NCBI GenBank assembly: GCA_964540825.1
Contig: CAZINT010000002.1
Span: 477 to 64,476 of the forward strand
Length of the DNA stretch: 64,000 nucleotides
Direction of reading: 5' to 3'
Source of the DNA: an uncultured Gammaproteobacteria bacterium
Lineage (GTDB): Bacteria; Patescibacteriota; Patescibacteriia; Magasanikbacterales; GWA2-37-8
A model generated the notes under the pieces. It had not been told where the DNA came from. It searched no databases and saw only the letters and a list, made by a program, of their open reading frames with translations. Below are positions 1,196-63,907 of the stretch, in pieces (positions within the stretch are counted from its first letter, which is position 1; every line of letters starts with the position of its first letter). The position numbers and the translations under genes were made by a program.

Positions 1196-1768
1196 TTATG
1201 CGGCCAAGTGCTTTACAGCCTCAGCTGATGTTAGGGTGCTTTCAGCCTTCGTGAGCGCCGGATAGCGGTAGGTGTGTATAGCCACGGGGAGCACCGAGGA
1301 GCGCCTTGGTACCTGCTTGGCGTTGACTACGCGCAGGCCGAGCCCCTGCTTACGGACCCTGACACGCATCCAGCTTTTCGCGCTGATGCTGTAGAGGTAG
1401 CATTTCCACGATTTTCGGAGATGTCTCAGGCCGATCTCGTAGACGTAGCCGTCGAGAACGAGTCGTGGTTTTATTTGGGTATTCACAGCGACCTCCACGG
1501 TGATTTGAAAAAAATCTGGACGTGGTTCCTCGATGCTTACGAAAGCGCAAGGATCAGACATGTGGCGAAGAAGCCATTTTTTAAGCTCAGCGAGCTGGAG
1601 CACAGAGTGGGCATAATGCGCTGGCTGCCTTCCACGCTGAACAAGCAGCAAAGCCCTTCGACGAATTTTTTCTTTTTTGTCTACAGCCTCCGACCAGATA
1701 AGGTGGAGTATGCTCAGGTACAGGCTCAAGAAGAGCCCGACTTCGACAGACAAATGCCGTCGCGGCAT
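1196..1768 (-). CDS. hypothetical protein (190 aa) on a GC-rich (~57%) foreign cassette
   Basis: SD AGGAGG sits 6 nt before the ATG at 1768. A TTGACA..TATACA-like promoter lies upstream on the minus strand. The terminator at 1093-1125 follows. GC is well above flanking DNA. Confidence 0.55.
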   Translation of the reverse strand: MPRRHLSVEVGLFLSLYLSILHLIWSEAVDKKEKIRRRALLLVQRGRQPAHYAHSVLQLAELKKWLLRHMSDPCAFVSIEEPRPDFFQITVEVAVNTQIKPRLVLDGYVYEIGLRHLRKSWKCYLYSISAKSWMRVRVRKQGLGLRVVNAKQVPRRSSVLPVAIHTYRYPALTKAESTLTSAEAVKHLAA

Positions 1769-6471: not shown

Positions 6472-7728
6472 TTATTCGTACCGCAATGCTTCGATCGGGT
6501 CAAGCTTGGCCGCGCTGCGGGCGGGGAGCACGCCAAAACCAATACCGATAGCGGCTGAGACGCCAAAGCCAATGCCAATAGCATAGGGGGGCACTACAAA
6601 CGTCCAGGCGAGTCCGCCGGCAGAAGCAGCGAGTGAAACAACCCACCCGAGGAGTGCGCCTAAAGCAATGCCAAAAACTCCGCCTAAAATAGTAACGAGC
6701 ACTGATTCAATGAGAAATTCACTCAAAATGTTGTTGTACGTTGCGCCTAAAGCTTTTTTGAGGCCAATTTCGCTCGTGCGTTCGGTAACGACCACATACA
6801 TAATGTTCATGATGCCAACGCCCCCAACCACCAGCGATATTGCCGCAATTGCAATAAGGAGCAGAGTAATACCGTTAAAAATAGTATTAAAACTTTCGAG
6901 TGATTGAGCCTGGGTCTGCACCAAAAAATCTTCTTTAGTTACGTCGGTGATGTTGTGGCTCCGGCGCAATGTAGTGCGAATTTGGGCGACTGTGGCGTCC
7001 CCTTGAGAAATGTCTTTAACCTGAATAACACCAATGGTGATGTGGTCAACGCCTAACATTTTTTTCTGGGCAGTAATTAAGGGAACGTACAAACTATCAT
7101 CAGCTTGCCCGCCAAAACTTCCTTGGGAATTATAGACGCCAATGACTTGAAAATTAAGATTGCCCACCCGAATAAGTTTGCCGATCGGTTCGTCTTGGTT
7201 AAATAAATTATCAGCGAGTGAACTGCCGAGGATGACAACTTGTGCTCCGCCGCTATCTTCAGCCGGGGTGTAGAAGCGACCAGAACGAAGCGTGTGCTGG
7301 TCAATGCTAAAACGTTCGGCCGACGAACCGTAGTAAATAACATTTTTTTGTGTATCCCGGTAACTTACAACCGCCTGACCGGTAATCATGCCGTAACTGT
7401 TCACGACATTTGGGAGTTTGTTAATTTCATCAAGATCGCGCTGTTTTAGGGTGGTAATAACTATACCATTAAAACTTCCGGTGCCGTCGTCTGAGCCGGC
7501 GGAAGCAGCTGCTCGTGTTTTGGTAGTGGGCGGGACACGTGTTTGGACAAAGAGTGTATTGGTGCCGAGCGCGCCAACTTGCGCGTCAATTAAGCTTCTA
7601 AATCCGGCACCGGCCGAAAGCACCATAATCACCGTGGCAATACCAATAATAATGCCCAGCGTCGTTAGCATTGTTCGGCCTTTGTTTGCCAAAAGCGCAC
7701 GCAAAGATTGTTTAAAAGCTGCAAACAT
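6472..7728 (-). CDS. ABC transporter permease, MacB/FtsX-like (permease 2 of a tandem pair)
   Basis: N-terminal TM segment, a large periplasmic domain, and a C-terminal FtsX-type 3-TM bundle ending …LDPIEALRYE. Confidence 0.85.
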   Translation of the reverse strand: MFAAFKQSLRALLANKGRTMLTTLGIIIGIATVIMVLSAGAGFRSLIDAQVGALGTNTLFVQTRVPPTTKTRAAASAGSDDGTGSFNGIVITTLKQRDLDEINKLPNVVNSYGMITGQAVVSYRDTQKNVIYYGSSAERFSIDQHTLRSGRFYTPAEDSGGAQVVILGSSLADNLFNQDEPIGKLIRVGNLNFQVIGVYNSQGSFGGQADDSLYVPLITAQKKMLGVDHITIGVIQVKDISQGDATVAQIRTTLRRSHNITDVTKEDFLVQTQAQSLESFNTIFNGITLLLIAIAAISLVVGGVGIMNIMYVVVTERTSEIGLKKALGATYNNILSEFLIESVLVTILGGVFGIALGALLGWVVSLAASAGGLAWTFVVPPYAIGIGFGVSAAIGIGFGVLPARSAAKLDPIEALRYE

Positions 7729-7731
7729 ATT

Positions 7732-9033
7732 TTATTCGTAACGCAAGGCGTCAATTGGGTTCAGTTTTGAGGCCTTAAACGCTGGATAGAGTCCAAATAC
7801 AACCCCGGTAATAACCGAAACGCCTACAGCGAGTACGACCGAGGTAATTGAAATAACAAAATCCCATTCATAGCCCAGCTTGTGCATGAGGAGGGAAGCC
7901 AGATACGAAATAACCGATCCGAAAATGATACCAATAATACCGCCAAGTGACGTAAGCGTGCCTGCTTCGAGTAAAAATTGGTTGCGAACAGCGGCCGGAG
8001 TCGCCCCAATGGCTTTACGTAGTCCGATTTCACGCGTGCGTTCGGCGACGGTAGCAAGCATGATATTAAGGATGCCAATACCGCCTACAACCAGTGCAAT
8101 GCCAGCCATGGCAACAAGAAAGATACGGAGCGCGTTAGTGATCTGAGTGAGTGCTCCGACCGCGTCAGCAATATTTCGTACCGTAAAATCAACGTCAGCA
8201 TCGTTTTTAATGCGATGACGAGTGCGCAGTGTCGTGTCTACATCGCGAATAGTTTGGTCGACATTTTGGTCACTATCAACTTTAATGTTGATCGTTTGCA
8301 AATAATGAATACCTAAAATTTGCTGCTGCCCAAGCGCGAGCGGAATAAAAATCTGATCATCCTGGTCTTGAAAAAAAGAACTTCCTCGTGGGCTAATAAC
8401 TCCAACAACTCGCAGTGGAACACCGCCGCTCGTGGGTGAAGTTGACCGTTTAACTTTGATTATCTGTCCGATGGGATCAACACCGTTAGCAGTAAAGAGT
8501 TCGTCGGCCACAGTTGAGCCAAGGACGACGACATTGGCGCCGCCCGATTCTTCTTGTTCGCTAAAAAACTGACCTTTCTGCATGTTAAAGCTGACAACAT
8601 TCGCGTATTCATGATCGGTTCCGATGAAATTAGTGTCAATTGTTTTATTTTCCCACGTTACCGTAGCACTTCCGCGGACGACTGCGTTAACGGCGCTGGC
8701 GTGCGGGACTGCGCCAGGGTCGCGCAGGGCAGCGACGTCCTCGTTAACAAGGGTGGTTATGACGATACCAAATACCTGGGCAGGCGGGCCTTTTTCGTTG
8801 CTTTTTCCTGGTTGAACGCTGAGCAGATTTGAACCGAGTTTGGTGACCTGGCCAAGCACCAAACTTTGCGCTCCGGCACCAAGTGAAATAATGATAATAA
8901 CCCCAGCAACCCCAATAACAATCCCGAGGATTGTCAGTACAGATCGGCCTTTACGTGCCCTAAGGCCGCGAAAAACCATTTTAATGGTTGAGAAGAAATT
9001 CATGTGAGTTGTAAGTACTGCCAACCCTGTCAA
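7732..9033 (-). CDS. ABC transporter permease, MacB/FtsX-like (permease 1)
   Basis: Same architecture and the same C-terminal LNPIDALRYE motif as 6472..7728, so the two are paralogous. Confidence 0.85.
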   Translation of the reverse strand: MTGLAVLTTHMNFFSTIKMVFRGLRARKGRSVLTILGIVIGVAGVIIIISLGAGAQSLVLGQVTKLGSNLLSVQPGKSNEKGPPAQVFGIVITTLVNEDVAALRDPGAVPHASAVNAVVRGSATVTWENKTIDTNFIGTDHEYANVVSFNMQKGQFFSEQEESGGANVVVLGSTVADELFTANGVDPIGQIIKVKRSTSPTSGGVPLRVVGVISPRGSSFFQDQDDQIFIPLALGQQQILGIHYLQTINIKVDSDQNVDQTIRDVDTTLRTRHRIKNDADVDFTVRNIADAVGALTQITNALRIFLVAMAGIALVVGGIGILNIMLATVAERTREIGLRKAIGATPAAVRNQFLLEAGTLTSLGGIIGIIFGSVISYLASLLMHKLGYEWDFVISITSVVLAVGVSVITGVVFGLYPAFKASKLNPIDALRYE

Positions 9034-9047
9034 AGATTGGCAAAGCG

Positions 9048-9764
9048 TTATTTGACTAACTCCTTTTCAGCGCTGGCAAAGACGCGATCAGCTACTTTTT
9101 CGTCAGACAAAATTAAACCGTCTTTAACGCGAATAATGCGACTGGCATGACGAGCAGTCTCTTGTTCATGTGTAACCAGAATAATTGTGCGGCCTTCGTC
9201 ATTGAGCTTTTGGAGGATGCTCATGACAATGTTACCTGATTTTGAATCAAGGTTTCCGGTTGGTTCGTCGGCAAAAATAACTGCCGGATTGCAGACTAAT
9301 GCGCGAGCAATAGCAACGCGTTGTTTTTCACCGCCGGAAATTTGGTTGGTAAAATAATTAAGGCGATGTCCAAGACCAACCGACTCAAGCGCGGCTTTCG
9401 CGAGCGAGTCTTGGTTTTTTTTCTTGCTATAGATGAGCGGAAGTTTTACGTTATCGAGTACGCTGGTGCGAGCAAGTAAGTTAAACGATTGGAATACAAA
9501 GCCGATGCGTTCATTGCGGAGTCCGGCTAAGTAGTTGTCGTCAAATCCTTCGGTGTTTTTACCTTCGAATTCGTAGACGCCGCCGGTCGGTCGATCAAGA
9601 AAGCTCAAAATATGCATGAGGGTTGATTTACCGCTGCCGCTTGGCCCCATGATGGCTACGAATTCACCTTGTTCAATTTTAAAGCTGACACCCTTAAGTA
9701 CCGATGTCGAGACTCCATCATTTTCGTAGTCTTTTGTAATATTTTGAACATCGATAAGACTCAT
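9048..9764 (-). CDS. ABC transporter ATP-binding protein (MacB/LolD-type ATPase)
   Basis: Walker [13 protein letters not shown] signature LSGGEKQR, Walker B ILVTHE. Confidence 0.9.
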
Positions 9765-11874: not shown

Positions 11875-12255
11875 ATGGAAAGAATCGCCGTGGTGAGCGT
11901 CAGTCGGGCAGTGCGCCTCAGAGCCTACAGGCTTCATCATTATGATCAATCAGTCCGCGAATACGCCTGTTTGCTGGAATTGCAGATTGGCGATCGGGAA
12001 CTTGCTGGCTGCGACTTCGTGAATCGAGCGCTCGAGCTGCTGGCACAGATGATGCGTCTGCAGCGAGAGAAACCGCAAAACGCGCTCCGGTCACTCTACA
12101 TTGTGAATAAGCATTTCACTTCGATTTTGCGGATCTGCGTTGAATCGTGGGAGTATGAGGAGGCCGTAGCCTGCTATGAAGCGCGGCTTCACTGCACCAT
12201 GGCCCTCCTGGCTGAGCGGGGTCTCAGCCTCGAGCATTTGTCGCAATTCGCTTGA
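11875..12255 (+). CDS. hypothetical protein (126 aa), GC-rich (~57%) foreign cassette
   Basis: SD AGGAGG sits 6 nt before the ATG. GC is far above flanking DNA. The gene is followed by GGCGCCGC-containing repeats. No family recognised. Confidence 0.5.
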   Translation: MERIAVVSVSRAVRLRAYRLHHYDQSVREYACLLELQIGDRELAGCDFVNRALELLAQMMRLQREKPQNALRSLYIVNKHFTSILRICVESWEYEEAVACYEARLHCTMALLAERGLSLEHLSQFA

Positions 12256-39221: not shown

Positions 39222-39355
39222 AAATTGTTTTGATCGGGTAGAGCTGAAGGTTTAGTATAAAAAGTAATATTATTGTACTCTACGAAATAAAAATTATCTA
39301 GATGTACATATTTAAAATAAAAATATTGGCTAATTTTAGCCAATATTTTTGAACG

Positions 39356-39427
39356 CTCCCGGGGTCGGATTCGAACCGACGACCAATTGGTTAACAGCCA
39401 ACTGCGCTACCGCTGCGCTACCCGGGA
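39356..39427 (-). tRNA. tRNA-Asn (anticodon GUU)
   Basis: Manual fold: 7-bp acceptor stem TCCCGGG/CCCGGGA, D arm GCGC…GCGC, anticodon loop CTGTTAA, T arm GTCGG-TTCGAAT-CCGAC, discriminator G. CCA is not encoded. Confidence 0.85.
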
Positions 39428-39433
39428 ATATAT

Positions 39434-39670
39434 TTATTTTCGTGATCCGTACGCTTCAGGGTTTAAAATATCTCTATCGTCTGGACCGTATTTTACACGT
39501 TTCGGTGTAACTGCCCCTGCCGATGGAGAAGGAACAAAACGATCTCCCACGATTTCTCCTTTTTTTGGTTCCGTAATAACATTATCGAGCATGCCTCCGT
39601 ACGGAAGTTCTGACAAAGATTGACGCGCCACCAAAAGAGGGGTTGATGGCGGTGAAAAGCGTCTTTTGCT
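39434..39670 (-). CDS. small hypothetical protein
   Basis: ORF immediately upstream of tRNA-Asn on the same strand. No family recognised. Start uncertain. Confidence 0.3.
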   Translation of the reverse strand, partial: SKRRFSPPSTPLLVARQSLSELPYGGMLDNVITEPKKGEIVGDRFVPSPSAGAVTPKRVKYGPDDRDILNPEAYGSRK

Positions 39671-39724
39671 CATATATTCTAAGAACGGTACTAGTATAGC
39701 GAAGCATTTTTGACCTGTCAACCA

Positions 39725-42321: not shown

Positions 42322-42604
42322 GAATTCCTCACTTTAAGCTGTTTAACGTCATACATCTTTTTTAAGCAGTTGTCAAGATAGTTTCCCAAAAAAACCTTAT
42401 ACATTAGCCAAAAATAAACTTTTAAATTTTTTATGTACTTAGTAATTTTTTAGGATTGACAAAACACCTTTTTTATGCTAGGATTGAACGTTTTGAAAAG
42501 TAACCCGACGATTAATTTCGGCTCGTTGGGCTGCAGGTTCTCGAGTGGAGCTATTTGCAAGCTCCATTTGGAGAGGACCTGTTTTTCGATCAAGGAGTCA
42601 TCAC

Positions 42605-43813
42605 ATGCCGATCCAGTCTGTCGTCACCCCGATCACCTCCAACCTCAGCGATGGCGTCCCCGAGCTGCTTGGGGATGACAAGGACACCGACCGCATGGTC
42701 GTTCCGCCCTTTGTCCAGCCCCCCATGATTGGCCTTGCGCCCCCCGAGCGCGCGGTCCTGGAGGCGTACGCGCGGTTCTACGCCATGCTCAACCCCCAGC
42801 TCGAATTTCCGCAGCCAAGGATCATTGATGGCCAGTACTACTGCGGCATGCCCGCTGGCCTCCCGTGCTGCGACCGATCCTTCACGGTCGACAGGTGGAG
42901 CATCCGTAGCGGTATCGTGATCGGGATTTGCCAGCAGGCGAGTGTTGTTTTCGTGAAGGTGAACAATCACGAGTACCCCGCGGCCAAGCACCTCCTCTGG
43001 ACCGGCTCCCTGACCCGGGCCAGGGAGATCGCCGCCAACCAGGCAGAGAAGATCCAGCGCCCGCCCGCCCAGGCCCGCCCCGTGCGTCGTCGCCCCGAGG
43101 ATCTCGTGGTCAAGCCGACGTCCGGTACGATCTTCCGTCCCATCCCTCCGAAGAAGGTGTTCGTCCCGGCCGCGGTCACCCCCGCGCCTGCGATCACTAT
43201 CACCGTGGCCACCCCGGCCGCTGTCATCAAGGAGGACAAGAACAAGGGTGCCGAGAAGCGCGTCGCCCGCAAGACCAAGGTCCACGAGCTCACCTCGCGC
43301 CTCCGCCTCGTCGGCATGGAGGAGAACGAGGCCTCCAGCGCCGCCGAACGAGTGGCGTACAAGTTCGAGAAGAAGACCGGTAGCGAATTGACCCCAGAGG
43401 ATAGTGCGTCGAACATCTTCGGCAGCGCCATCGACGGGCTTCTCGAGGCCGCCGCGACCTTCGGGGAAGATAACGCCGAGTATCAGGTCAAGATCAGGCT
43501 GTGCCGCTACTACCTGGCGGCCTCCACTATCCTCGAGTCGATCCTGACCGGAGAGACCGACGTGGAGCAGATCAAGCGCCACGACCACCCCGAGATCATG
43601 GACAAGATCGTGAGCATGCTCGCGGCTGTCAAGCATGAGCTCGCGGATCGTGCGGCCATCGCTCGCGCCCACGCCGTGCCCAGCGAGAAGCCCTTCGCTG
43701 TCGTCGAGGGCCACCGCCGACGCCCGACCCCGGTCGCGCCCACCAAGAAGCTCGGGGGTGGTCAGAACGCCAACAAGAACAACAACCAGGCCCGCGGCAA
43801 GCGCGGGCAGTAG
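42605..43813 (+). CDS. hypothetical protein (402 aa), very high GC (~65%) foreign gene, Ala/Pro-rich
   Basis: TTGACA-N17-TAGGAT promoter at 42457-42487. SD AAGGAG 7 nt before the ATG. Strong third-position GC bias. The terminator at 43856-43895 follows. No family recognised. Confidence 0.6.
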   Translation: MPIQSVVTPITSNLSDGVPELLGDDKDTDRMVVPPFVQPPMIGLAPPERAVLEAYARFYAMLNPQLEFPQPRIIDGQYYCGMPAGLPCCDRSFTVDRWSIRSGIVIGICQQASVVFVKVNNHEYPAAKHLLWTGSLTRAREIAANQAEKIQRPPAQARPVRRRPEDLVVKPTSGTIFRPIPPKKVFVPAAVTPAPAITITVATPAAVIKEDKNKGAEKRVARKTKVHELTSRLRLVGMEENEASSAAERVAYKFEKKTGSELTPEDSASNIFGSAIDGLLEAAATFGEDNAEYQVKIRLCRYYLAASTILESILTGETDVEQIKRHDHPEIMDKIVSMLAAVKHELADRAAIARAHAVPSEKPFAVVEGHRRRPTPVAPTKKLGGGQNANKNNNQARGKRGQ

Positions 43814-43855
43814 GAGTAACCGAGGTCTTCGTGCCTCGGCAGCGCCTCGAATTTT

Positions 43856-43895
43856 CGAGCGCGGCCCCGTCTTCGGGACCGCGCTCTTTCTTTTT
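43856..43895 (+). terminator. rho-independent terminator (gagcgcggccc-cgtcttcg-ggaccgcgctc + TTTCTTTTTT)
   Basis: GC-rich hairpin plus T-run. Confidence 0.6.
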
Positions 43896-45405: not shown

Positions 45406-46053
45406 TTATGTGCACTGCTCGAGCGCTGATTTCGCGAGCTGGTAGGCATAGGCGTTGTCGATCAGCCGCTCAAGAGCCGGGCAGCCTCGGAACATCACGG
45501 ACGCTCTTCTGCCCAGCTTCACCGTAAGGCTTTTCCTCAAATTCGGGCCCGGGATGCGGGTCGCTTCGAAAACCTCCGTGATGCTGAGTGATTGCTCAAT
45601 GCGCCGTGCAACATCCTGGTGTATGAGCGCAACAGCGCTCAGCGCTTGGGGAATGGTTGCCCGAAAATCCACTTCGCAGAGCTTCGCAATACTCTGCATC
45701 GCTGCTTCAAAACCACCGCTTTGCCCGGGGGTTTTATTGCCCTGGATCAAAAGCTTCGTCTTGAGGGTCACACCGGCACCAATGAGAACCGCCTTGAGGG
45801 GGTCGGTCGAAGTGGTGTCGGCGGATTTGACGGCCATTAATCCATCAACGATATCGTAGACATTCGCCCGCGCGAGCAGAGGGTGGTCGGCCCTCAAGCT
45901 TGGTGCGCCAAGGAGCACGCCGACGTGCCTAAAGAAACGAAACGAGGCGTGCCCGCTGCTGACGCTATCAGCCAACCACTGGAAGAGACTTTGGCTGCGC
46001 AGTTCGGCCGGCAGAATCTCCTTCCCGGTCAGGTTAGAGACAGTTGCGTTCAT
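45406..46053 (-). CDS. hypothetical protein (216 aa), GC-rich (~57%) foreign gene
   Basis: SD GGAGG 5 nt before the ATG at 46053. GC is above the flanks. No family recognised. Confidence 0.5.
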   Translation of the reverse strand: MNATVSNLTGKEILPAELRSQSLFQWLADSVSSGHASFRFFRHVGVLLGAPSLRADHPLLARANVYDIVDGLMAVKSADTTSTDPLKAVLIGAGVTLKTKLLIQGNKTPGQSGGFEAAMQSIAKLCEVDFRATIPQALSAVALIHQDVARRIEQSLSITEVFEATRIPGPNLRKSLTVKLGRRASVMFRGCPALERLIDNAYAYQLAKSALEQCT

Positions 46054-46221
46054 TGGGTTCCTCCGCAAGATAGTAAGGAAGCGTTGTTGTTTTTCGTTTG
46101 TTTTTTTAAAACGAATAGCCAGTGTTGTAAAACTTTCTCGGGTGCTTGTCAATACTTTTTGGCAATAGCCTGTGTATATGATATAGTGATTGCGACTTAC
46201 TTATTAAATTTAAGATTTTGT

Positions 46222-53837: not shown

Positions 53838-54578
53838 ATGGAAACGATTACGAACAAAGGTTTATCACGTTTTGGCATGATTTTAGCGCTTGGCCTTATC
53901 ATCGTTGCAATCATTGCCGCAGCCACGTTTTATCGCTCTAAAAGTCTTGGTGATACGGTAAGTGTTACCGGATCATCGCAAACTAAAATTCACTCTGACA
54001 TGGTAAAATGGCGCAGTACGTTCTCACACAATGTTGATGTTAAAGATTTGCAAGACGGATATGCACGCATGAAATGGGAGGCGGGCACAATTACAACATA
54101 CCTCAAACAAAACAAAATTACCGACGATCAGATTACGATTAACCCGGTCAGTATTTATCCGCAATACGAACAAACCAACTTTGGCAGTACCGGAAAAATT
54201 ATCGGCTATACATTATCCCAGCAAGTAATTGTTGACTCAAGTGATGTTGACGGTATTACCAAACTTGCCAAAGACTCCGGAACGCTTATTAATCAGGGAA
54301 TTTTCTTTACCAGCGACCCGTTAGAATACTATTTCTCGAAACTTAATGATCTAAAACTCGACATGCTTGCCGAAGCAACCAAAAACGCCAAAGATCGTGC
54401 TCAAAAAATTGCGGAAAGTAGCGGCGCTAAGGTAGGGAGCATGCGTTCAGCTGACATGGGTGTCTTTCAGGTGATGGCGCTCAACTCGGCTGATGTTTCT
54501 GATTATGGCACCTTTGATACATCCTCAATTGATAAAAATGTGATGGCCGTTGTTCGCGCCTCATTCTCTTTGCGCTAG
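53838..54578 (+). CDS. SIMPL (DUF541) domain protein, membrane-anchored
   Basis: N-terminal TM anchor followed by a SIMPL-like pattern (TVSVTGSSQTKI…). Confidence 0.5.
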   Translation: METITNKGLSRFGMILALGLIIVAIIAAATFYRSKSLGDTVSVTGSSQTKIHSDMVKWRSTFSHNVDVKDLQDGYARMKWEAGTITTYLKQNKITDDQITINPVSIYPQYEQTNFGSTGKIIGYTLSQQVIVDSSDVDGITKLAKDSGTLINQGIFFTSDPLEYYFSKLNDLKLDMLAEATKNAKDRAQKIAESSGAKVGSMRSADMGVFQVMALNSADVSDYGTFDTSSIDKNVMAVVRASFSLR

Positions 54579-54581
54579 GCT

Positions 54582-55232
54582 ATGACTCTCGCCAAAAAGA
54601 AAGGGGTCATTCTTCTTATCGCCCCAATTACAGTGCTAATTGTAGTCTTAGTCTCCTATGGGGTGGCAAATTATTTTTTGTCTCGAAGTATTGCGCTTCC
54701 GCCTGAAGGAACAATTGGATTAGCGCAGGCTTCACTGAACACAGCTGTTTTTCAGATGACAAAAGTTACTCTTGGTCTTTTAGGGACCGCGGCAGTTGCA
54801 AGTATGTTTATCTGCTGGCCGCTTGGAATTTATTTTTTGGCTAAAAAAGAACATGGTGATCAAGAAGTTATTAAGCTTCAAACACAAGACCAGTATCAAA
54901 ACTTAACCACTGAACAAATAGCTTTTATCCAAAAGTGGTCCTGGGGCGCTTTCTTCTCACCGTTTGTGTGGACACTGGGTAACAAGCTGTATCTGTGGGC
55001 TGTCGGAACACTCGTGCCGCTTTTTGGAATATATGCTTGGATAAAACTTGCAAGCAGCGGCCGGGAAATGGCGTGGGTACAAAAAGGATGGACCGGTTTT
55101 GAGCAGTTTAAAAAACGTCAAAAGATAATGATGCTTATTATTATAGTAGTAACCATCTTAGCCATAGGTGGAAAAATAATCGGTTTTTCTTTTTCTACAA
55201 AAAATCAACCGGGACTGACAATTTCCAATTAA
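54582..55232 (+). CDS. hypothetical membrane protein (5 TM)
   Basis: Hydrophobicity only. Confidence 0.45.
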   Translation: MTLAKKKGVILLIAPITVLIVVLVSYGVANYFLSRSIALPPEGTIGLAQASLNTAVFQMTKVTLGLLGTAAVASMFICWPLGIYFLAKKEHGDQEVIKLQTQDQYQNLTTEQIAFIQKWSWGAFFSPFVWTLGNKLYLWAVGTLVPLFGIYAWIKLASSGREMAWVQKGWTGFEQFKKRQKIMMLIIIVVTILAIGGKIIGFSFSTKNQPGLTISN

Positions 55233-55242
55233 TATCAAGGTT

Positions 55243-56121
55243 ATGTCTCACCCTGCCAAGCTTATTGATACGCACTGTCATGTTCACTTTAATGCCTTTA
55301 AGCTTGATAGCGATGAGGTTGTCAGACGTGCTCTGGAAAAAGGAGTGATCATGAATTTAGTTGGTACTCAGCGAGATACCAGTAAAAACGGTGTGGTGAT
55401 GGCAGAAAAATATGATGGAGTATATGCGAGTGTAGGATTGCACCCGGTCCATTTGCATTCGCAGCACTTAGATGAAGAAGAATCTTCTTTTAATACTCGT
55501 GAAGAAGATTTTGATTATGAGTATTATAAAGAATTAACCAAGAGTCCCAAAACAATCGCGATCGGGGAGTGTGGGCTTGACCTGTATCGTATCCCTGAAG
55601 GAATTTCTAAGGAAGCAGTACTTGTCAAGCAGCAAGCCGTTTTTCGCGAACATGTTCGCCTGGCGTTTGAAACCGGACTACCGCTCGCCATTCACGTGCG
55701 TGACGCTTATCAGGAAATGATCGATCTTTTAAAAGAAGAGCTGGCTCAGCGCGGACAAACGCAAGTACGGGGAGTGATTCATTGCTATATCGGTAATTGG
55801 CATTTTGCCGAGCAACTTTTGGCGCTCGGACTGTATCTTGGTTTTACTGGCATTATTACCTTTCCGCCCAAAAAGAGCGACCCGACTGCCCAAGTAGCAC
55901 TTCTCGAGGTTGTTAAAAATTGCCCGCTTGACCGGATGGTGCTTGAAACGGATTCGCCGTACTTGGCTCCGATTCCATATCGTGGTAAGCGGGCGGAACC
56001 TTGGATGGTAGAAGAGGTCGCAAAAAAAATTGCTGCTGTAAAAATGTGCGATGCAGAACTGGTGCGCAAAACGACCACGCGAAACGCTAGCGCACTCTTT
56101 AATCTTTCAGTATCAAGCTGA
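55243..56121 (+). CDS. tatD: TatD family metal-dependent hydrolase (DNase)
   Basis: IDTHCHVHF start motif. Conserved His and Asp (GECGLD…HCY…ETDSPYL). Confidence 0.8.
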   Translation: MSHPAKLIDTHCHVHFNAFKLDSDEVVRRALEKGVIMNLVGTQRDTSKNGVVMAEKYDGVYASVGLHPVHLHSQHLDEEESSFNTREEDFDYEYYKELTKSPKTIAIGECGLDLYRIPEGISKEAVLVKQQAVFREHVRLAFETGLPLAIHVRDAYQEMIDLLKEELAQRGQTQVRGVIHCYIGNWHFAEQLLALGLYLGFTGIITFPPKKSDPTAQVALLEVVKNCPLDRMVLETDSPYLAPIPYRGKRAEPWMVEEVAKKIAAVKMCDAELVRKTTTRNASALFNLSVSS

Positions 56122-56179
56122 TTTATTCACAGTAAAAAGTACTTGACTTTATCGTTAAAAACCACTAATATAGTGGCCT

Positions 56180-56449
56180 ATGGACCAGAAACCTACACCA
56201 GTCTTTGACCCATCTGACCGTAAATACTATCTTTTTGCACTTAAGGTTGTAGGTGATTTTGGTGCAAATATTGCTGTTCCCGTAGTTATTTTCGTTCTTC
56301 TTGGTCAATTCTTAGAAAAAAGATACGGTTTTGCCCCGTATGGAACAGTTGCCGGTTTTGTTATAGCGGCTATTATTTCCGGGGTAATCATCTTCCGTAA
56401 GGCCAAAGAGTACGGTACTCAGTATCAAGAGCTGATTAAGAAAAAGTAA
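56180..56449 (+). CDS. atpZ: AtpZ/AtpI-like small membrane protein preceding the F-ATPase operon
   Basis: Two TM helices. Sits immediately upstream of atpB. Confidence 0.5.
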   Translation: MDQKPTPVFDPSDRKYYLFALKVVGDFGANIAVPVVIFVLLGQFLEKRYGFAPYGTVAGFVIAAIISGVIIFRKAKEYGTQYQELIKKK

Positions 56450-56459
56450 TACTGCACGT

Positions 56460-57245
56460 ATGAGTCAAGTACATATTCCCACCTTAGCGCCTGAAACCCT
56501 TTTTCACATTGGGCCCCTTCCGGTTACCAATACCATTATAAACGCGTGGATCGCGCTTTTTATTTTTTTAATCGTTGGTTTGGTTTTGCGTAAACGCCTG
56601 GCGCTGCGCCCGGGCAAAATGCAGAACTCGATGGAATACTTTTTGGAAATTTTGCTCGGCTATTTTGATCAGGTAACGGGGTCGCGCGCCAAGACGATGC
56701 GTTTTTTGCCGATTGCGGGTTCAGTTTTCTTTTTTATTCTCCTTTCAAATTGGTTAGGTTTATTACCGGGCACTGGCAGTATTACGCTGGGTCATGACTT
56801 TTTGCTTCGTCCGGCTAACACGGATTTAAACCTTACCCTCGCCATGGCACTGGTCACCGTTGTGTCGTCACATATTTACGGTTTGTTTGCGGTCGGGTTC
56901 TTTACCCATATCAATAAATTCATTCAGATCGGTTCTATTTTCAAAAGTTTGCGTAAAGGTCCGATCGCTATTTTTACCGCGCTCGTCGAATTTGCTGTCG
57001 GTCTTATTGAAATTGTGAGTGAAATGTCCAAAGTATTGTCGCTCTCGCTTCGTCTGTTCGGTAATATTTTTGCCGGGGAAGTACTCATTACGGTTATTAC
57101 CAGTATTGTCGCCGTAGTTGTTCCAACACCGTTCATGCTGTTGGAATTGCTCGTAGGCATTATCCAAGCATCTGTTTTTGCTATTCTGACCATTGTGTAC
57201 ATGACCGTAGCGTCGAGCGAACCGCACGGAGCAGAAGAACATTAA
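56460..57245 (+). CDS. atpB: F0F1 ATP synthase subunit a
   Basis: Conserved Arg-containing helix (LSLRLFGNIFAGE). Confidence 0.85.
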   Translation: MSQVHIPTLAPETLFHIGPLPVTNTIINAWIALFIFLIVGLVLRKRLALRPGKMQNSMEYFLEILLGYFDQVTGSRAKTMRFLPIAGSVFFFILLSNWLGLLPGTGSITLGHDFLLRPANTDLNLTLAMALVTVVSSHIYGLFAVGFFTHINKFIQIGSIFKSLRKGPIAIFTALVEFAVGLIEIVSEMSKVLSLSLRLFGNIFAGEVLITVITSIVAVVVPTPFMLLELLVGIIQASVFAILTIVYMTVASSEPHGAEEH

Positions 57246-57376
57246 TTAGTATCAGCAGCGCAGTACCTGTGGAAGTACCGCTCTGCTCTATTAATTAATT
57301 GGTAAGAGGTGAATCGGGAGTGCACGTAACGCCGTGCTACGCTGTACCTTCACTTCAAACGCGTTATTACCAGTAA

Positions 57377-57619
<243 letters not shown>

Positions 57620-57642
57620 AAGTATTTCGATCGATCGGGTTT

Positions 57643-58290
57643 ATGCCTCAGGGTATAAGCCCGATCAAATTGGATTATTTAGAACTAAACATTATGAGAT
57701 TTACTAGTATTGATACGGTACACGCTGCAACTGCGCACGAAGCGGAAGCACCTACCGAAGCGCATGAAACTGCCGCCGATGGAGGTGTGCTCGGATCGCT
57801 CGGTATCAGCCCAACCTTGTTTGGATTTCAACTGATTAACTTTGCAATTGTTGCTGCTATTGTTTGGTTTATCATTTTAAAACCGCTCACCTCGAAAATG
57901 GCGGAGCGCCAGAAGATGATCGACGAAAGCCTGTCTAATGTTGATAAAATTCAAGAGAAGCTTGCCAAGGGTGAACGTGACTACCAGGAACGCATTGATG
58001 TTGCCAAAGTAGAAGCAAATAAAATTATTGAAAAAGCCGGAGTTCAGGCAGGGGAGTTATCTGAATCAATGAAAGTAAAAGCACGTGAAGATATTGAACA
58101 GTTGGTTGATCAGGCTAAGCGCAATATTGAAGTTGAGCGCGATCAAGCAGTGACCCAAATTAAAAAGAATGCTGCCGCCCTGGTCACGTCAGCGGTTGAA
58201 AAAATATTACATGAAAAGTTAGATGGCGCTAAAGATCAAAAATTAGTTGAGGAAATGGTTTCTAAAATTGCTTATGAAGAAGAAAAATAG
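57643..58290 (+). CDS. atpF: F0F1 ATP synthase subunit b
   Basis: Single N-terminal TM followed by a long charged coiled coil. The start could be 57694. Confidence 0.75.
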   Translation: MPQGISPIKLDYLELNIMRFTSIDTVHAATAHEAEAPTEAHETAADGGVLGSLGISPTLFGFQLINFAIVAAIVWFIILKPLTSKMAERQKMIDESLSNVDKIQEKLAKGERDYQERIDVAKVEANKIIEKAGVQAGELSESMKVKAREDIEQLVDQAKRNIEVERDQAVTQIKKNAAALVTSAVEKILHEKLDGAKDQKLVEEMVSKIAYEEEK

Positions 58291-58666
58291 TTATAAAGAG
58301 TACGCCGCCGCCTTGTACGAGGTTACCAAAAACCTCGAAGGCAAAGCTCTGAGTCAAGCTCTTGCCGAGTTTGTAAAGCTTTTGGCGCGCGCAAACAAAC
58401 TTAAGAAAGCGCCGCTCATCATGGACTGTTTTGAAAAGATCTACCGCAAAAAAAATGGTATTGTGCCCTTGGAAGTAATCACTGCCAAACCACTGGCTGA
58501 AAAAAGCAGGGAAAAAATCATTACAGTATTTGGGGCTAAAGCAGAACTGAACGAAACGACGGACCCAAACATTATCGGCGGGATCATTATCAAGACTGAA
58601 GATATCGTGCTCGACGGAAGCCTCAAAAAACAATTACAACTTTTAAAGACTCAATTAACTGCATAA
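58274..58666 (+). CDS. atpH: F0F1 ATP synthase subunit delta (short form)
   Basis: OSCP/delta-like C-terminus ([22 protein letters not shown]). Overlaps atpF by 17 nt. Confidence 0.6.
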
Positions 58667-58668
58667 GT

Positions 58669-60156
58669 ATGTCCATGAATTCCATTATTGAAGAACTCAA
58701 AAAAAATATCAGCAGCTTCGAAAAGCAGGTTGAAGTCGAGGAAGTTGGTAAAGTGCTTGAGGTGGGGGATGGTATCGCCCGCCTGAGCGGTCTTACTAAA
58801 TGTCAGGCCAGTGAAATGCTTGAATTTCCCGGCGGAACGTTTGGCGTAGCCCTTAACCTGGAAGAAGAAACGGTTGGTGCGGTTATTTTAGGTGACTATA
58901 CTCATATTAAAGAAGGGGATACCGTTAAACGTACCGGTCGTATTTTGTCCGTTCCGGTTGGCGAGGAACTTATTGGCCGCGTGGTTAATCCGCTTGGTGT
59001 TGCCAAAGATGGCGGAGCACCAATTGCTTCCAAGAAATTTTATCCGATTGAAAAAATTGCTCCGGGCGTTATGACTCGTGAGCCGGTTACCCAGCCGGTG
59101 CAAACGGGTATTAAGGCGATTGACGCGATGATCCCGGTAGGGCGCGGTCAACGCGAACTTATTATCGGCGACCGCCAAACTGGTAAGACTGCTGTCGCGA
59201 TTGATACGATTATCAACCAAAAAGGACAAGACATGATTTGTGTCTATGTTGCGGTTGGACAAAAAGAATCAAAAATCGCTCGTATCGTTGCCAAGCTTAA
59301 AGAAACAGGTGCAATGGATTACACAATTGTAGTCGCAGCTGGTTCTTCTGACCCTGCATCCCTTTTATACATCGCGCCCTACGCCGGTGTTGCTATGGCT
59401 GAATACTTCATGGACAAAGGCAAAGATGTTTTGGTTATCTACGATGATCTTTCCAAGCAAGCTTGGGCCTACCGTGAAATTTCACTTCTCTTGCGCCGTC
59501 CACCGGGCCGTGAAGCTTTCCCTGGTGATGTTTTCTACCTCCACTCTCGCTTACTTGAACGCGCTTGCCGCCGCAACAAAGAATCCGGCGGTGGTTCGAT
59601 CACAGCCTTACCGATTATCGAAACACAGGCTGGAGACATCTCTGCGTATATTCCAACTAATGTAATTTCAATTACGGACGGTCAGATCTTCCTTGAAAGT
59701 GATTTGTTCTTCCGCGGTATCCGCCCGGCGCTTAACGTTGGTATTTCCGTATCGCGCGTTGGCTCGGCTGCCCAGATCAAACCCATGAAAAAAGTGGCCG
59801 GTAAGATGAAGCTGAACATGGCCCAGTTCCGTGAAATGGAAGCCTTTGCTCAGTTTGCGAGCGATCTCGATGCTGAAACAAAAAAACAGATTGACCTTGG
59901 TCAGCGCTTAGTAGAAATCTTGAAACAGCCACAGTACCAACCCGTACCGGTTGCTAACCAAGTAGCGGTTATTTATGCGCTTAACAATGGCTATGCCAGC
60001 GATGTTGCGGTAAAAGATATTCGTGACTGGGAGGCTAAATTGCATGAATACATGAATAAAACGAAACCAGGGCTGTTAGAAAAGATCAGTAAAGGTGGTT
60101 GGGATGAAGAGATTGAGAAAGAATTAAAAGAAGCGATTCAAGAATTCAAGAAATAA
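58669..60156 (+). CDS. atpA: F0F1 ATP synthase subunit alpha
   Basis: Walker A GDRQTGKT and the full alpha-subunit similarity pattern. Confidence 0.95.
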
Positions 60157-60179
60157 AAAGATCTTTTAAAAAAGTACCC

Positions 60180-60215
60180 GGCGAACCTTTGTAGGCTCAG
60201 CCGGGCAATAAACCC
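60180..60215 (-). terminator. rho-independent terminator for the antisense cassette gene (cccggc-…-gccggg with a T-run on the minus strand)
   Basis: The hairpin is followed on the minus strand by TTTTTTAAAAGATCTTTTT. No T-run on the plus strand. Confidence 0.55.
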
Positions 60216-60232
60216 CGAAGTTGCTAGTCGAG

Positions 60233-60646
60233 TCAGCGCTTCGGGTCGTTACGGATGTAGTTCTGCTCGGTCAGGTACTCGAGGTCAGACCGGCGAACCA
60301 GACGACGCTTGGTTCCTCCCTGGAGGTCCTCCACGACGATCTCCTCGCCGACGTCCATGAGGAAGACCAGGTAGCGCGTGACCTCTTCGGCACTGCTCTG
60401 CCCGAAGCAGCCCAGGTGGTAAACGCTCCCGCTGATGTTCCAGCTGGCAAGCGCACCTTGGGACACCTCCCAGCAAACGAGCTCCTGCTCCGGACTCTTC
60501 GAGATGACGGAGCGGACGAGGGCGTTGTTGATCTCCGGTCCCTGCTCCTCGAGCAGCGCGACACCGCCACAAGGACTGAGCAGGCTGCGAGGAATTGTAT
60601 TTGCAATACCTTTGCGACCAATGAACGTGCAGCGAAAGATCGGCAT
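60233..60646 (-). CDS. hypothetical protein (137 aa), high-GC (~60%) cassette inserted antisense between atpA and atpG
   Basis: SD AAGGAG 6 nt before the ATG at 60646. Own promoter and terminator. Strong GC3 bias. No family recognised. Confidence 0.55.
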   Translation of the reverse strand: MPIFRCTFIGRKGIANTIPRSLLSPCGGVALLEEQGPEINNALVRSVISKSPEQELVCWEVSQGALASWNISGSVYHLGCFGQSSAEEVTRYLVFLMDVGEEIVVEDLQGGTKRRLVRRSDLEYLTEQNYIRNDPKR

Positions 60647-60734
60647 GCTGAACTCCTTATTGAGTGGCCAGAAAAGCAGGTAAGCGAGCCTTCTATTCTG
60701 GATACTCAATAAAAATAACAAACAAGTATAGCAC

Positions 60735-60765
60735 TAAAACTCTTATTTGTCAAGATTTACCCTAA
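60735..60765 (-). promoter_or_regulatory. near-consensus sigma70 promoter TTGACA-N17-TATACT driving the antisense cassette gene
   Basis: Read on the minus strand: cTTGACAaataagagttttagtgcTATACTtg. Confidence 0.45.
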
Positions 60766-60771
60766 GCTTGT

Positions 60772-61665
60772 ATGGCTCTCAGTACTAAGACAATTAAACG
60801 ACGCATCAAATCTATTGCCAACACTAAAAAAATAACCAAGGCAATGGAGATGATTAGTGCTGTAAAAATGCGCCGAGCCGTTGCTAACGCCTCGGCAACA
60901 CGCGCTTATGCTGACCTGGCTTGGAAAATGCTCCAGGATGTGACGCGCAAAGCTGGTCCCAAGCACCACCCGCTACTGGCAGAACGTCCGATTAAAAAGA
61001 TGGGGCTGATTTTAATCACCAGCAACCGCGGACTTGCCGGCGGGTTTAGTTCCAAACTCCTTCAGGAAGTCGACGCTTTTATTACCAAAATCAAAAAGGA
61101 AAAAAATGTCGATGTTGAAGTCTTGGTAATGGGTAAAAAAGGCCGAAAAATTTACCAGAATTTTGGTCACGCCATTGCTGCTGAATTTGATAAGGTTGAT
61201 GTTACAAAAGCGATTTCAGATATTCTTCCGATGTCACAGCTTGCCGCAACAGATTTTATTAATAGCACGTACGATCAAATTGGCGTAGCGTACATGCAAT
61301 ATATTTCAGCTATTAAACAGGTGCCGATCATTAAGCCGATTTTTCCAATTAAACAAAAAAATCACATTACGGTTATTGAAAAAAATCCTCAACCTACAGA
61401 GCAGCCTACCGATTTTATTTTTGAACCGAATCCGCTGGAAGTACTTAAAATGCTTCTGCCCCGCCTCATTGAAATGCAGCTCTACCAGGCAGTGCTTGAA
61501 TCTGACGCATCGGAACATAGTGCCCGCATGATGGCCATGCAAGCAGCCTCAGACGCCGCAAGCGATATGATCAAAGAATTAAATACCACCTTTAATAACG
61601 CTCGCCAAGCGGCGATTACCAAAGAAATTGCCGAGGTGATTGGTGGGGCAGCGGCTTTGGAATAA
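60772..61665 (+). CDS. atpG: F0F1 ATP synthase subunit gamma
   Basis: Gamma-subunit N-terminal (IKRRIKSIANTKKITKAMEMISAVKMRRA) and C-terminal (ITKEIAEVIGGAAAL) helices. Confidence 0.9.
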   Translation: MALSTKTIKRRIKSIANTKKITKAMEMISAVKMRRAVANASATRAYADLAWKMLQDVTRKAGPKHHPLLAERPIKKMGLILITSNRGLAGGFSSKLLQEVDAFITKIKKEKNVDVEVLVMGKKGRKIYQNFGHAIAAEFDKVDVTKAISDILPMSQLAATDFINSTYDQIGVAYMQYISAIKQVPIIKPIFPIKQKNHITVIEKNPQPTEQPTDFIFEPNPLEVLKMLLPRLIEMQLYQAVLESDASEHSARMMAMQAASDAASDMIKELNTTFNNARQAAITKEIAEVIGGAAALE

Positions 61666-61674
61666 TTATTTTTT

Positions 61675-61983
61675 ATGAGCAATGAAGCCCGTCAAATGAT
61701 ACGAAATTTTGATCGTCCACCAAGCGCTTCGCAAGAACGGCGTGAAAAAAACGGGTACTTTGAAGTAGCAGAATTACTCGCAACACATTTTGATGATAGT
61801 GTTTTTACTTTATCGGATATTCGTGAGGCGGGAATAACAAAAGAACTTACCAGATCAACTATTTCGGCTATGATAAAAGAAGGTTTTTTGGTACCAGATG
61901 GTGCTGGCTTTGCTGTTTCAGGTCCAACATATGAGCGTATTACTAAGCGTGATAGTGCCGGAAATGACGGAGAAGACACTTAA
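61675..61983 (+). CDS. hypothetical protein (102 aa) inserted between atpG and atpD
   Basis: ORF with an ATG 9 nt after the atpG stop. Not an ATP synthase subunit. No family recognised. Confidence 0.4.
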   Translation: MSNEARQMIRNFDRPPSASQERREKNGYFEVAELLATHFDDSVFTLSDIREAGITKELTRSTISAMIKEGFLVPDGAGFAVSGPTYERITKRDSAGNDGEDT

Positions 61984-61997
61984 TAAAAAGACTGTAA

Positions 61998-63398
<1,401 letters not shown>

Positions 63399-63493
63399 TA
63401 TTAGTACTAAGCAGAGTAGGCAGAATAAGCGAGTTAAGCGCATCTTATTACTTACCCTGCCTACAACTTACTCTGCTTAATCTGCTCGTCTAT

Positions 63494-63907
63494 ATGAAAT
63501 TTCAAATAATCACACCCGAACGCGTTGTTTTCACTGATGAGGTTGATCAGGTCAGTTTAATGACGTCTACCGGTGAGATTACAGTTATGGCCCATCACAT
63601 TCCGCTCGTGACCACTATCCAGCCTGGGGAATTGCGCTTTAAAAAAGATGGCAAAGAGAGCGTAATTGCTGTTTCCGGCGGTTTTGCTGAAGTAAAAAAA
63701 GATAATTCTCTTGTTATTCTTGCTGACACCGCTGAACATGCTACCGAAATTGACTTAACTCGTGCCGAAGCTGCCAGAGATCGAGCACTTAAAACCATGC
63801 AAGAGCCGGTTCGACGGGATCAAGAAGAATTTGCTGCGCTTCAGGCTAATCTTGAGCGCGCTCTTAATCGCGTTAAAATAGGTAACAAATATCGTCGTTT
63901 ACCGTAA
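63494..63907 (+). CDS. atpC: F0F1 ATP synthase subunit epsilon
   Basis: Epsilon N-terminal beta-sandwich (IITPERVVF…) plus a C-terminal helical hairpin. Confidence 0.85.
   Translation: MKFQIITPERVVFTDEVDQVSLMTSTGEITVMAHHIPLVTTIQPGELRFKKDGKESVIAVSGGFAEVKKDNSLVILADTAEHATEIDLTRAEAARDRALKTMQEPVRRDQEEFAALQANLERALNRVKIGNKYRRLP

Follow-up and report, generated by a model that had tools for sequence, protein, structure and literature searches.

The closest described system to the locus reported here is the noncontiguous operon menE-menC-MW1733-ytkD-MW1731 of Staphylococcus aureus (Saenz-Lahoya et al. 2019, reviewed in PMC7154746). In that operon, the antisense mRNA, besides encoding a protein, base-pairs with an untranslated region inside the polycistronic mRNA, and polymerase collision together with RNase III processing uncouples the operon halves (PMC7154746). 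A second relevant arrangement is the excludon of Listeria, in which antisense transcripts overlap between neighbouring genes (PMC7154746, PMC12288877). We analysed a 64,000-nt stretch of contig CAZINT010000002.1 (hereafter the window), assigned to Candidatus Magasanikbacteria (Patescibacteria, candidate phyla radiation), and found a minus-strand gene of 137 codons, ORF137, between the atpA and atpG genes of the ATP synthase (atp) operon.

This layout is that of a noncontiguous operon, with an opposite-strand gene between co-oriented genes of one operon. Like the S. aureus case, it involves a protein-coding antisense gene with its own (here predicted) promoter within a functional operon. However, co-transcription and reciprocal regulation have been demonstrated in S. 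aureus, whereas at the atp locus we infer both from sequence. The antisense gene of S. aureus is a resident gene, while ORF137 appears to be a recent foreign orphan, and the operon and host here are the F1Fo ATP synthase operon and a Patescibacterium instead of the men operon and S. aureus. As in an excludon, the expression of oppositely oriented neighbours would be linked via overlapping transcription. Excludons depend on long 5' or 3' untranslated regions that run into the neighbour, whereas the atp locus has an efficient-looking terminator before atpA, and its overlap would come from operon read-through. The architecture is already known; what is particular here is the combination of antisense orientation, foreign GC content, full expression signals and orphan status, and the arrangement was apparently formed by a horizontally acquired orphan. 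On balance, we lean towards the view that ORF137 is an acquired orphan gene forming its own convergent transcription unit in the atp operon, which would be a noncontiguous operon by read-through.

Composition of ORF137 and its insertion between atpA and atpG

The features on which the analysis is based are the following (ORF, open reading frame; aa, amino acids).

58669..60156, plus strand: atpA (F1 alpha subunit), a 495-aa ORF with its TAA stop at 60154-60156
60157..60771, no strand assigned: atpA-atpG spacer of 615 nt, the lineage-specific insertion
60168..60207, minus strand: intrinsic terminator, with the hairpin at 60207..60175 and UUUUUU at 60173..60168
60214..60245, minus strand: proximal GC-rich hairpin (CCCGAAG...CUUCGGG), which holds the TGA of ORF137 and is followed by GUUUAUU
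60233..60646, minus strand: ORF137, with ATG at 60646, TGA at 60235-60233 and 137 codons
60653..60658, minus strand: Shine-Dalgarno (SD) sequence AAGGAG, 6 nt before the ATG
60657..60712, minus strand: long 5'-leader hairpin, an imperfect 24-nt inverted repeat
60725..60753, minus strand: sigma-70-type promoter, consisting of TTGACA (60753..60748), 17 nt and TATACT (60730..60725), with an extended -10 TG
60772..61665, plus strand: atpG (F1 gamma subunit), for which neither an SD nor a promoter-like site was found

The GC content of ORF137 is 0.60, and that of a 400-nt core (60200-60599) is 0.618, compared with a mean of 0.449 for the window (z = 3.3); only 1.5% of all 400-nt segments are equally high. 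In 200-nt segments, GC content was 0.605-0.63 between 60200 and 60600 and 0.37-0.39 on both sides. The high-GC core spans about 60200-60590, and its flanks (60157-60199 and 60600-60771) have 40% GC. Elsewhere in the window, a GC content of at least 0.58 occurs only at 42.5-43.9 kb and at 45.6 kb. These values agree with the preliminary description of the locus, which had reported an antisense ORF of 137 aa with ~60% GC between atpA and atpG; the background is ~45%.

Stop codons are scarce in GC-rich DNA, and four frames are open in this high-GC stretch, with five ORFs of 82-163 aa, so that ORF length alone is no evidence of coding. Codon usage was scored with a high-GC table taken from the other high-GC gene of the window (42605-43813) and with a native table taken from the atp genes. 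In the frame of ORF137, GC content at the first, second and third codon positions (GC1/2/3) was 0.62/0.43/0.77, the classical pattern of a GC-rich gene. The codon log-odds of this frame reached +48 bits with the high-GC table, while the other five frames were all negative, and with the native table none of the six frames was positive. Codon-position GC and codon usage therefore favour the minus frame, which bears the mark of a protein-coding gene shaped by evolution in a GC-rich genome. In the first 20 codons GC3 is host-like (~0.4), but from about codon 21 onward it is 0.75-0.95, and the 5' end of ORF137 may be younger than the remainder or of other origin.

We consider it highly improbable that the true gene is instead the plus-strand 163-aa ORF (60221-60712), acting as an extra member co-transcribed with the atp genes. 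This ORF is open on the operon strand and was picked by the Logan gene caller, but its GC1/2/3 values (0.75/0.40/0.59) mirror those expected when the gene is on the opposite strand, and it has codon log-odds of -3 bits by the high-GC table and -1 by the native one, compared with +48 bits for ORF137. Moreover, it starts with TTG without start signals, and it is also an orphan, for which neither homologues nor a Pfam match were found. The NCBI annotation took the minus-strand protein, and its annotated product here is that of ORF137.

To place the insertion among relatives, 80 related loci were fetched with AtpA, 78 of which also carry atpG. The window AtpA is 91% identical to that of its closest relative, a Candidatus Magasanikiibacteriota metagenome-assembled genome (MAG), and 80-88% identical to those of a series of Magasanikbacteria and Patescibacteria MAGs. 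ORF137 was absent from all 78 loci having both atpA and atpG, and neither tblastn with ORF137 nor blastn with the spacer found a match in any of the 80 loci. The gap between atpA and atpG is 10 nt in loci L001 and L003 and 12 nt in L005 and L028 (AtpA identity 84-91% for these four), the two genes overlap in L006, and 63 nt separate them in L002. Because close relatives have ~10 nt between atpA and atpG, the ORF137 region is a lineage-specific insertion. It is not ancestral, and its composition and distribution point to a recent, horizontally acquired foreign gene unit. The proposal of a self-contained, compositionally foreign antisense unit is thus borne out by the core GC content, the unit's own signals and the short junctions of the closest relatives; none of the orthologous operons compared carries the gene, and no copy with native GC content was seen at this position.

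We also looked for signatures of known mobile elements. No terminal inverted repeats were found in the spacer and no second copy in the window. The sole direct-repeat candidate at the spacer ends matches at 8/9 nt (TCAAGAAAT / TCAAGATTT) and is unconvincing as a target duplication. An insertion sequence, a miniature inverted-repeat transposable element and an integron cassette were rejected as candidates, given an element without terminal repeats that is single-copy and absent from the 80 loci. An attC recombination site was not recognised in a check made by eye only. The 63-nt spacer of L002 shares ATAGCACT and TTTGTCA with the promoter region, in a different order.

The abrupt change of GC content would also be expected of an assembly chimera, in which reads of a high-GC organism were misjoined into the contig. 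We compared independent assemblies, namely Logan contigs of public runs encoding identical AtpA and AtpG. A 28.8-kb Logan contig of SRR11567520, the product of another assembler, was 100% identical along the whole path from atpA through the insert to atpG. In SRR11567528, two contigs, both 100% identical, meet inside the insert with a 6-nt overlap. A contig of SRR12901024, representing a 2%-diverged strain (L085, 97.9% identical), starts at window position 60579 and covers the promoter-proximal 193 nt, comprising the first 22 codons, the leader and the promoter, joined to atpG. Contigs of two runs do end inside the high-GC segment or at its border (L082/L084 at ~60400-60405, L085 at 60579), but the AT-rich sequence at both junctions of the insert is part of the cassette, and the operon is in register on either side. 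The insertion is present in independent assemblies of two other runs, and a chimera is therefore ruled out. The literature searched contained no mention of the run numbers. The anatomy of the unit, its foreign composition, its insertion and its presence in other assemblies were read directly from these sequences.

The variant strain was further compared with the window at the expression signals. L085 has the two promoter hexamers, the SD and the ATG without any change, against 8 substitutions in the surrounding 125 nt, and the only change inside ORF137 is synonymous. The chance that 8 substitutions miss the 21 signal positions is ~0.23; with so few sites, the intact signals of L085 are compatible with chance.

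Expression signals and transcription across the spacer

The predicted promoter of ORF137 matches the consensus at 11 of 12 positions, and its -35 hexamer is 19 nt away from the start codon of atpG. Promoters with at most one mismatch and a 17-nt spacer occur three times in the window, compared with 0.30 expected, and none of 100 shuffled sequences reached three. Identical hexamers recur ~265 nt upstream of the only tRNA gene of the window (tRNA-Asn), indicating that this consensus is used by the host. Judged by its sequence, the ORF137 promoter appears equal in quality to one that precedes a stable-RNA gene.

The leader between promoter and start codon is structured, with a fold of -27.2 kcal/mol (z = -3.5). 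On the minus-strand RNA its hairpin takes up part of the SD in pairing, and the atp (plus-strand) RNA forms the hairpin as well. A search of the leader against Rfam returned just a sub-threshold match to a miRNA-precursor hairpin, reflecting the leader hairpin. Between the window hairpin (60657-60712) and its counterpart in L085 (79-134) six positions differ, and the hairpin is retained in L085 on both strands. In one pair both bases differ, giving a mismatch (minus strand, U-A to C.C; plus strand, G.G), and at the remaining stem differences pairing on the plus RNA is kept or improved (A-U to G.U, G.U to G-C, U.G to C-G). This one comparison hints that the leader hairpin might matter on the atp mRNA.

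At the other end of the unit, the distal terminator hairpin is a 14-pair bulged stem (60207..60175), followed on the minus strand by A, C and U6. The two minus-strand hairpins jointly reached -38.2 kcal/mol (z = -4.47), and none of 200 shuffled sequences was as stable. A simple pattern scan overlooked the terminator because the stem is bulged, and it was found by folding. The element qualifies as a rho-independent terminator on the minus strand, not on the plus strand. The plus-strand hairpins have a folding energy of -32.1 kcal/mol (z = -3.7) and are followed by CAAUAAAC and UCGUUACGG, with no U tract. An A run precedes the distal hairpin on the plus strand and no U run follows it, indicating that the terminator is one-directional. 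A pattern scan of 59500-61500 found no terminator-like site on the plus strand. Plus-strand promoter-like sites matching at least 9 of 12 positions were likewise absent from the scan of 59500-61500, the spacer included, and manual inspection of the spacer revealed none. The preliminary description had listed a near-consensus sigma-70 promoter, a strong SD and an own rho-independent terminator on the minus strand, and no plus-strand terminator after atpA, and all four were recovered here.

With neither a terminator nor a promoter on the plus strand of the spacer, read-through of the operon across the antisense unit is the simplest reading. A different possibility is that the operon is split into atpI-B-E-F-H-A and atpG-(orf102)-D-C (orf102, an extra ORF, is described below), with an unrecognised promoter driving the second half. 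The plus-strand hairpins would then end or process the first transcript, and there would be little or no overlap of sense and antisense transcription. The 615-nt length of the spacer and the two stable plus-strand hairpins directly after atpA are in line with a split, as is a third hairpin just upstream of atpG, whose plus-strand pairing is mostly preserved by the L085 substitutions; in addition, the promoters of Patescibacteria are poorly characterised. Nevertheless, neither scan nor manual inspection yielded a plus-strand promoter-like site in the spacer, no U tract follows the hairpins, the F1 alpha, gamma and beta subunits are needed together, and atpA and atpG are ~10 nt apart in the closest relatives. 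We therefore regard a split operon as improbable.

Under the read-through model, the gene would have landed in opposite orientation in a former ~10-nt atpA-atpG junction in one Magasanikbacteria lineage. The predicted antisense mRNA would extend from ~60718 to 60168 (~550 nt), with a structured leader of ~70 nt, and the atp transcript would have to read through the 615-nt spacer to reach atpG, atpD and atpC. A polymerase at or from the antisense promoter, so close to the atpG start, would run head-on into the polymerase transcribing the operon. Along its entire length the antisense mRNA would be complementary to the operon spacer, and double-strand-specific processing could act on the duplex between atpA and atpG, while the terminator would shield atpA from antisense transcription. 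When ORF137 is expressed, less gamma, beta and epsilon would be made per alpha subunit, and strong transcription of the operon would suppress ORF137.

The ORF137 protein and its possible source

The predicted ORF137 protein is acidic (15.3 kDa, pI 5.5), has a single His and lacks a hydrophobic segment. Searches of Pfam, NCBIfam and PADLOC gave no match, and nuclease families were not matched either at E values up to 10. A word search of 5.8 billion proteins returned only ORF137's own NCBI copy, and a full HMMER search of 1.84 billion representatives returned ORF137 itself and one spurious repeat protein. Among PDB sequences none fell below E = 0.6, and tblastn against phages and plasmids gave chance-level matches only (E >= 0.8), of which an integrase match (H5, E = 0.8) was inspected and dropped as chance. 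Searches of IMG/VR and of JGI metagenomes with ORF137 peptides, and of the JGI metagenomes again with promoter DNA, found nothing. AlphaFold2 run without an alignment gave no confident fold, with confidence scores (pLDDT) of 36 (whole protein) and 41 (residues 30-137). The statement in the preliminary description that the protein matches no recognised family is consistent with these results.

The spurious repeat protein of the HMMER search (P0005, E = 5e-26) is a Cys-rich protein of 3909 aa with eight near-identical repeats of ~480 aa. Its score is the sum of eight ~13-bit matches over one 54-residue stretch; since the repeats are near-identical, the summed score is not independent evidence, and the match was rejected. 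It illustrates how repeat proteins inflate HMMER whole-sequence E-values.

One weak match, the sole one in PHROG, was to PHROG 25551, 'homing endonuclease' (residues 41-111, E = 0.0022). By eye, residues 56-95 resemble an AP2 domain (W..G..W.I..G...HLG.F...EE...Y), as found in the DNA-binding domains of phage HNH endonucleases. Phage HNH-AP2 domains were fetched with a consensus probe, and ten of them were aligned to a profile. Comparison with this profile by hhalign covered residues 56-82 (27 columns) with a probability of 4.5% (P = 0.009), and Pfam AP2 was not matched; an AP2/ERF-type domain was thus not supported. Our best guess, held with low confidence, is a small nucleic-acid-binding protein of mobile-element origin.

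These matches bear on the idea that ORF137 is a free-standing, homing-endonuclease-like selfish gene, which would cut the empty atpA-atpG junction of relatives and spread by repair. The seg/mob genes of T4 and the HNH-AP2 endonuclease genes resemble ORF137 in lying between conserved genes, in their sporadic occurrence, in having their own promoter and in their deviant composition. ORF137 likewise sits between conserved essential genes, is absent in relatives, is foreign in composition and has its own promoter and terminator. Unlike homing endonucleases, however, it has no nuclease motif that we could find: GIY-YIG, HNH and LAGLIDADG motifs were absent, no nuclease family in Pfam or NCBIfam was matched, a recognisable catalytic domain (including His-Cys box, PD-(D/E)xK and EDxHD) was not found, and the protein has one His. 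The AP2 profile result was non-significant, and 137 aa are short for both a binding and a nuclease domain. Homing endonucleases form families, whereas phages, plasmids, IMG/VR and the JGI metagenomes hold no relatives of ORF137. A selfish gene of this kind is, in our judgement, very unlikely.

We then compared the translation start of ORF137 with those of the host. No SD motif was found at any of the eight atp genes or at the SIMPL and TatD genes (window 53838-63907). Of 57 long ORFs, 6 are preceded by a 4-mer SD core within -20 to -4, a proportion equal to background (the start sites are crude). Two sites in the window, and no others, have the sequence AAGGAG-N6/7-ATGCCGATC (Met-Pro-Ile): the start of ORF137 and that of a 402-aa gene (42605-43813). 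By these comparisons the SD of ORF137 would be a foreign feature in a genome whose atp genes have none. ORFs preceded by AGGAG also tend to be GC-richer, for example 1199-1768 (minus strand, GC3 0.61) and 11875-12255 (plus strand, GC3 0.64), neither with a Pfam match.

The 402-aa gene belongs to a second high-GC unit with the following features.

42456-43890, plus strand: second high-GC unit, containing the 402-aa ORF (42605-43813) with the ATGCCGATC start
42456-42484, plus strand: promoter TTGACA-17-TAGGAT with TG, in an AT-rich upstream region
42592-42597, plus strand: AAGGAG, with a leader of ~110 nt
43815-43887, plus strand: two hairpins and a T run after the stop codon

The GC content of the 402-aa gene is 0.64 and its GC3 0.84-0.86. 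Its protein found only itself among the 5.8 billion proteins and had no Pfam match. ORF137 and the 402-aa protein could not be aligned, flanks included; the two units have a common design and codon usage, not sequence. The same AAGGAG...ATGCCGATC start is present only at these two high-GC orphans, which points to a common foreign source. The simplest reading would be a donor of one common kind, unsampled, with SD-led translation and ~65% GC.

A more far-reaching version of this proposal is that ORF137 is one of a set of GC-rich, SD-bearing orphans from an unsampled donor and has been co-opted as an antisense brake that throttles ATP synthase. The units of the set would share the start, the promoter type and the double-hairpin end, the donor could be the host of the episymbiont or a mobile element of that host, and firing of the promoter would leave gamma, beta and epsilon in shorter supply than alpha. 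We give this version little credence.

Several observations weigh against the acquired, convergently transcribed gene that we favour. The SD is, by the predicted fold, partly sequestered by the leader hairpin, and it may be useless in an SD-less host (the 3' end of the 16S rRNA lies outside the window). Given the host-like first 20 codons, the frame could have arisen by fusion or truncation. ORF137 is without homologues, so that conservation lends no support to a function, and the single variant strain spans just the first 22 codons of ORF137. In addition, promoter activity, co-transcription of atpA and atpG, any regulatory effect and a working ORF137 protein are all deduced from the DNA.

Most of these observations would also fit an inert relic, that is, a foreign high-GC fragment in which the 3' part of a donor gene was extended by chance into the AT-rich flank. 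Such a relic would not be usefully expressed, and its effect on the atp operon would be limited to a longer spacer. An orphan without a family, a GC3 that changes from host-like to 0.75-0.95 after 20 codons as in a fusion or truncation, high-GC DNA that is open in four frames, a leader hairpin over part of an SD in a host that does not use SDs, and the absence of a confident AlphaFold fold are all compatible with it. Against this, an 11/12 promoter with TG, an ideally spaced AAGGAG, an ATG and a U-tailed terminator, ordered on one strand, are unlikely to arise by chance, and such promoters are expected only 0.3 times per 64 kb. The hexamers, SD and ATG are also intact in L085 despite 8 substitutions in the surrounding 125 nt, though this could be chance (P ~0.23), and the frame runs unbroken through 137 codons, its codon usage being of donor type as far as the hairpin-embedded stop. 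We consider a relic unlikely, while taking it seriously.

The feature is real and more than chance, and its interpretation as an acquired antisense transcription unit is reasonable but unproven. If the unit is transcribed, a central energy operon of a reduced-genome bacterium would be wired as a noncontiguous operon by a recent foreign insertion, and the locus would be a natural example of horizontal transfer that places an essential complex under antisense control in a single step. Without transcription, ORF137 is just another hypothetical gene in a MAG. GC-rich orphans with translation signals that the host does not use could also help to trace the donors, perhaps the hosts, of uncultured Patescibacteria.

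Extra genes in atp spacers and minor features of the window

The genes of the operon were assigned from the ORF list of the window and from the Pfam families of identical products on Logan contigs; the identical AtpA product, for example, matched ATP-synt_ab_N, ATP-synt_ab and ATP-synt_ab_C. The order on the plus strand is atpI-like, atpB, E, F, H, A, [ORF137 on the minus strand], G, [orf102], D, C. Two further genes are listed.

56180-56449, plus strand: atpI-like gene, ahead of atpB
61675-61983 (Logan: 61696-61983), plus strand: orf102, an extra, lineage-specific ORF of 102/95 aa between atpG and atpD

The GC3 of orf102 is 0.23, and no family match was found in Pfam, NCBIfam or PADLOC; PF05635 likewise remained unmatched. 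The ORF is absent from the closest relatives, in which the atpG-atpD gap is 20-90 nt, indicating that the atp operon of this lineage gained two insertions. They are of opposite compositional bias. In the preliminary description the operon had been called otherwise canonical. This part does not hold, given the atpI-like gene in front and the lineage-specific ORF between atpG and atpD, whereas the sequence features, the foreign unit, its absence in relatives and the lack of a family all stood up.

Additional genes were also observed in the atp spacers of related loci. Genes matching PF05635 (23S rRNA intervening-sequence protein, a four-helix bundle; E 1e-25 to 1e-31) are located as follows.

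L006 5024-5410, L008 8507-8893 and L015 8869-9255, plus strand: PF05635 genes in the atpG-atpD spacer
L014 3145-3513 and 4787-5179, plus strand: PF05635 genes in the atpA-atpG and atpG-atpD spacers
L049 8458-8823, minus strand: PF05635 gene, the sole antisense copy

Furthermore, L007 (84% AtpA identity) has a 1.77-kb insertion (7486-9246) between atpA and atpG, with three plus-strand ORFs of 260, 121 and 115 aa. In this group, small accessory genes have thus landed in atp spacers repeatedly, and insertions there are evidently tolerated. The PF05635 genes resemble ORF137 as extra genes of ~120-130 aa in the atpA-atpG or atpG-atpD spacers. However, they form a large known family, are AT-rich like their hosts and lie on the operon strand except in L049, whereas ORF137 has no Pfam match, is GC-rich and antisense, and has a complete set of its own expression signals. 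Membership of ORF137 in PF05635 was rejected, as the family was not matched.

Two other observations were made in the window. A third stretch of raised GC content (45406-46152, minus strand; GC 0.55-0.58, GC3 0.62-0.64) contains a 248-aa ORF without a Pfam match. The distance to the 42.5-43.9 kb island is 1.6 kb, and a glutathione S-transferase (GST)-like gene and a membrane-protein gene, both of native composition, are located in between. The promoter that shares its hexamers with that of ORF137 (TTGACA-17-TATACT, 39721..39693, minus strand) precedes tRNA-Asn (39427..39355, minus strand). An 80-aa ORF (39676..39434), with no match in Pfam or Rfam, lies between this promoter and tRNA-Asn, and the stretch could be a small protein gene or an undescribed RNA co-transcribed with tRNA-Asn.

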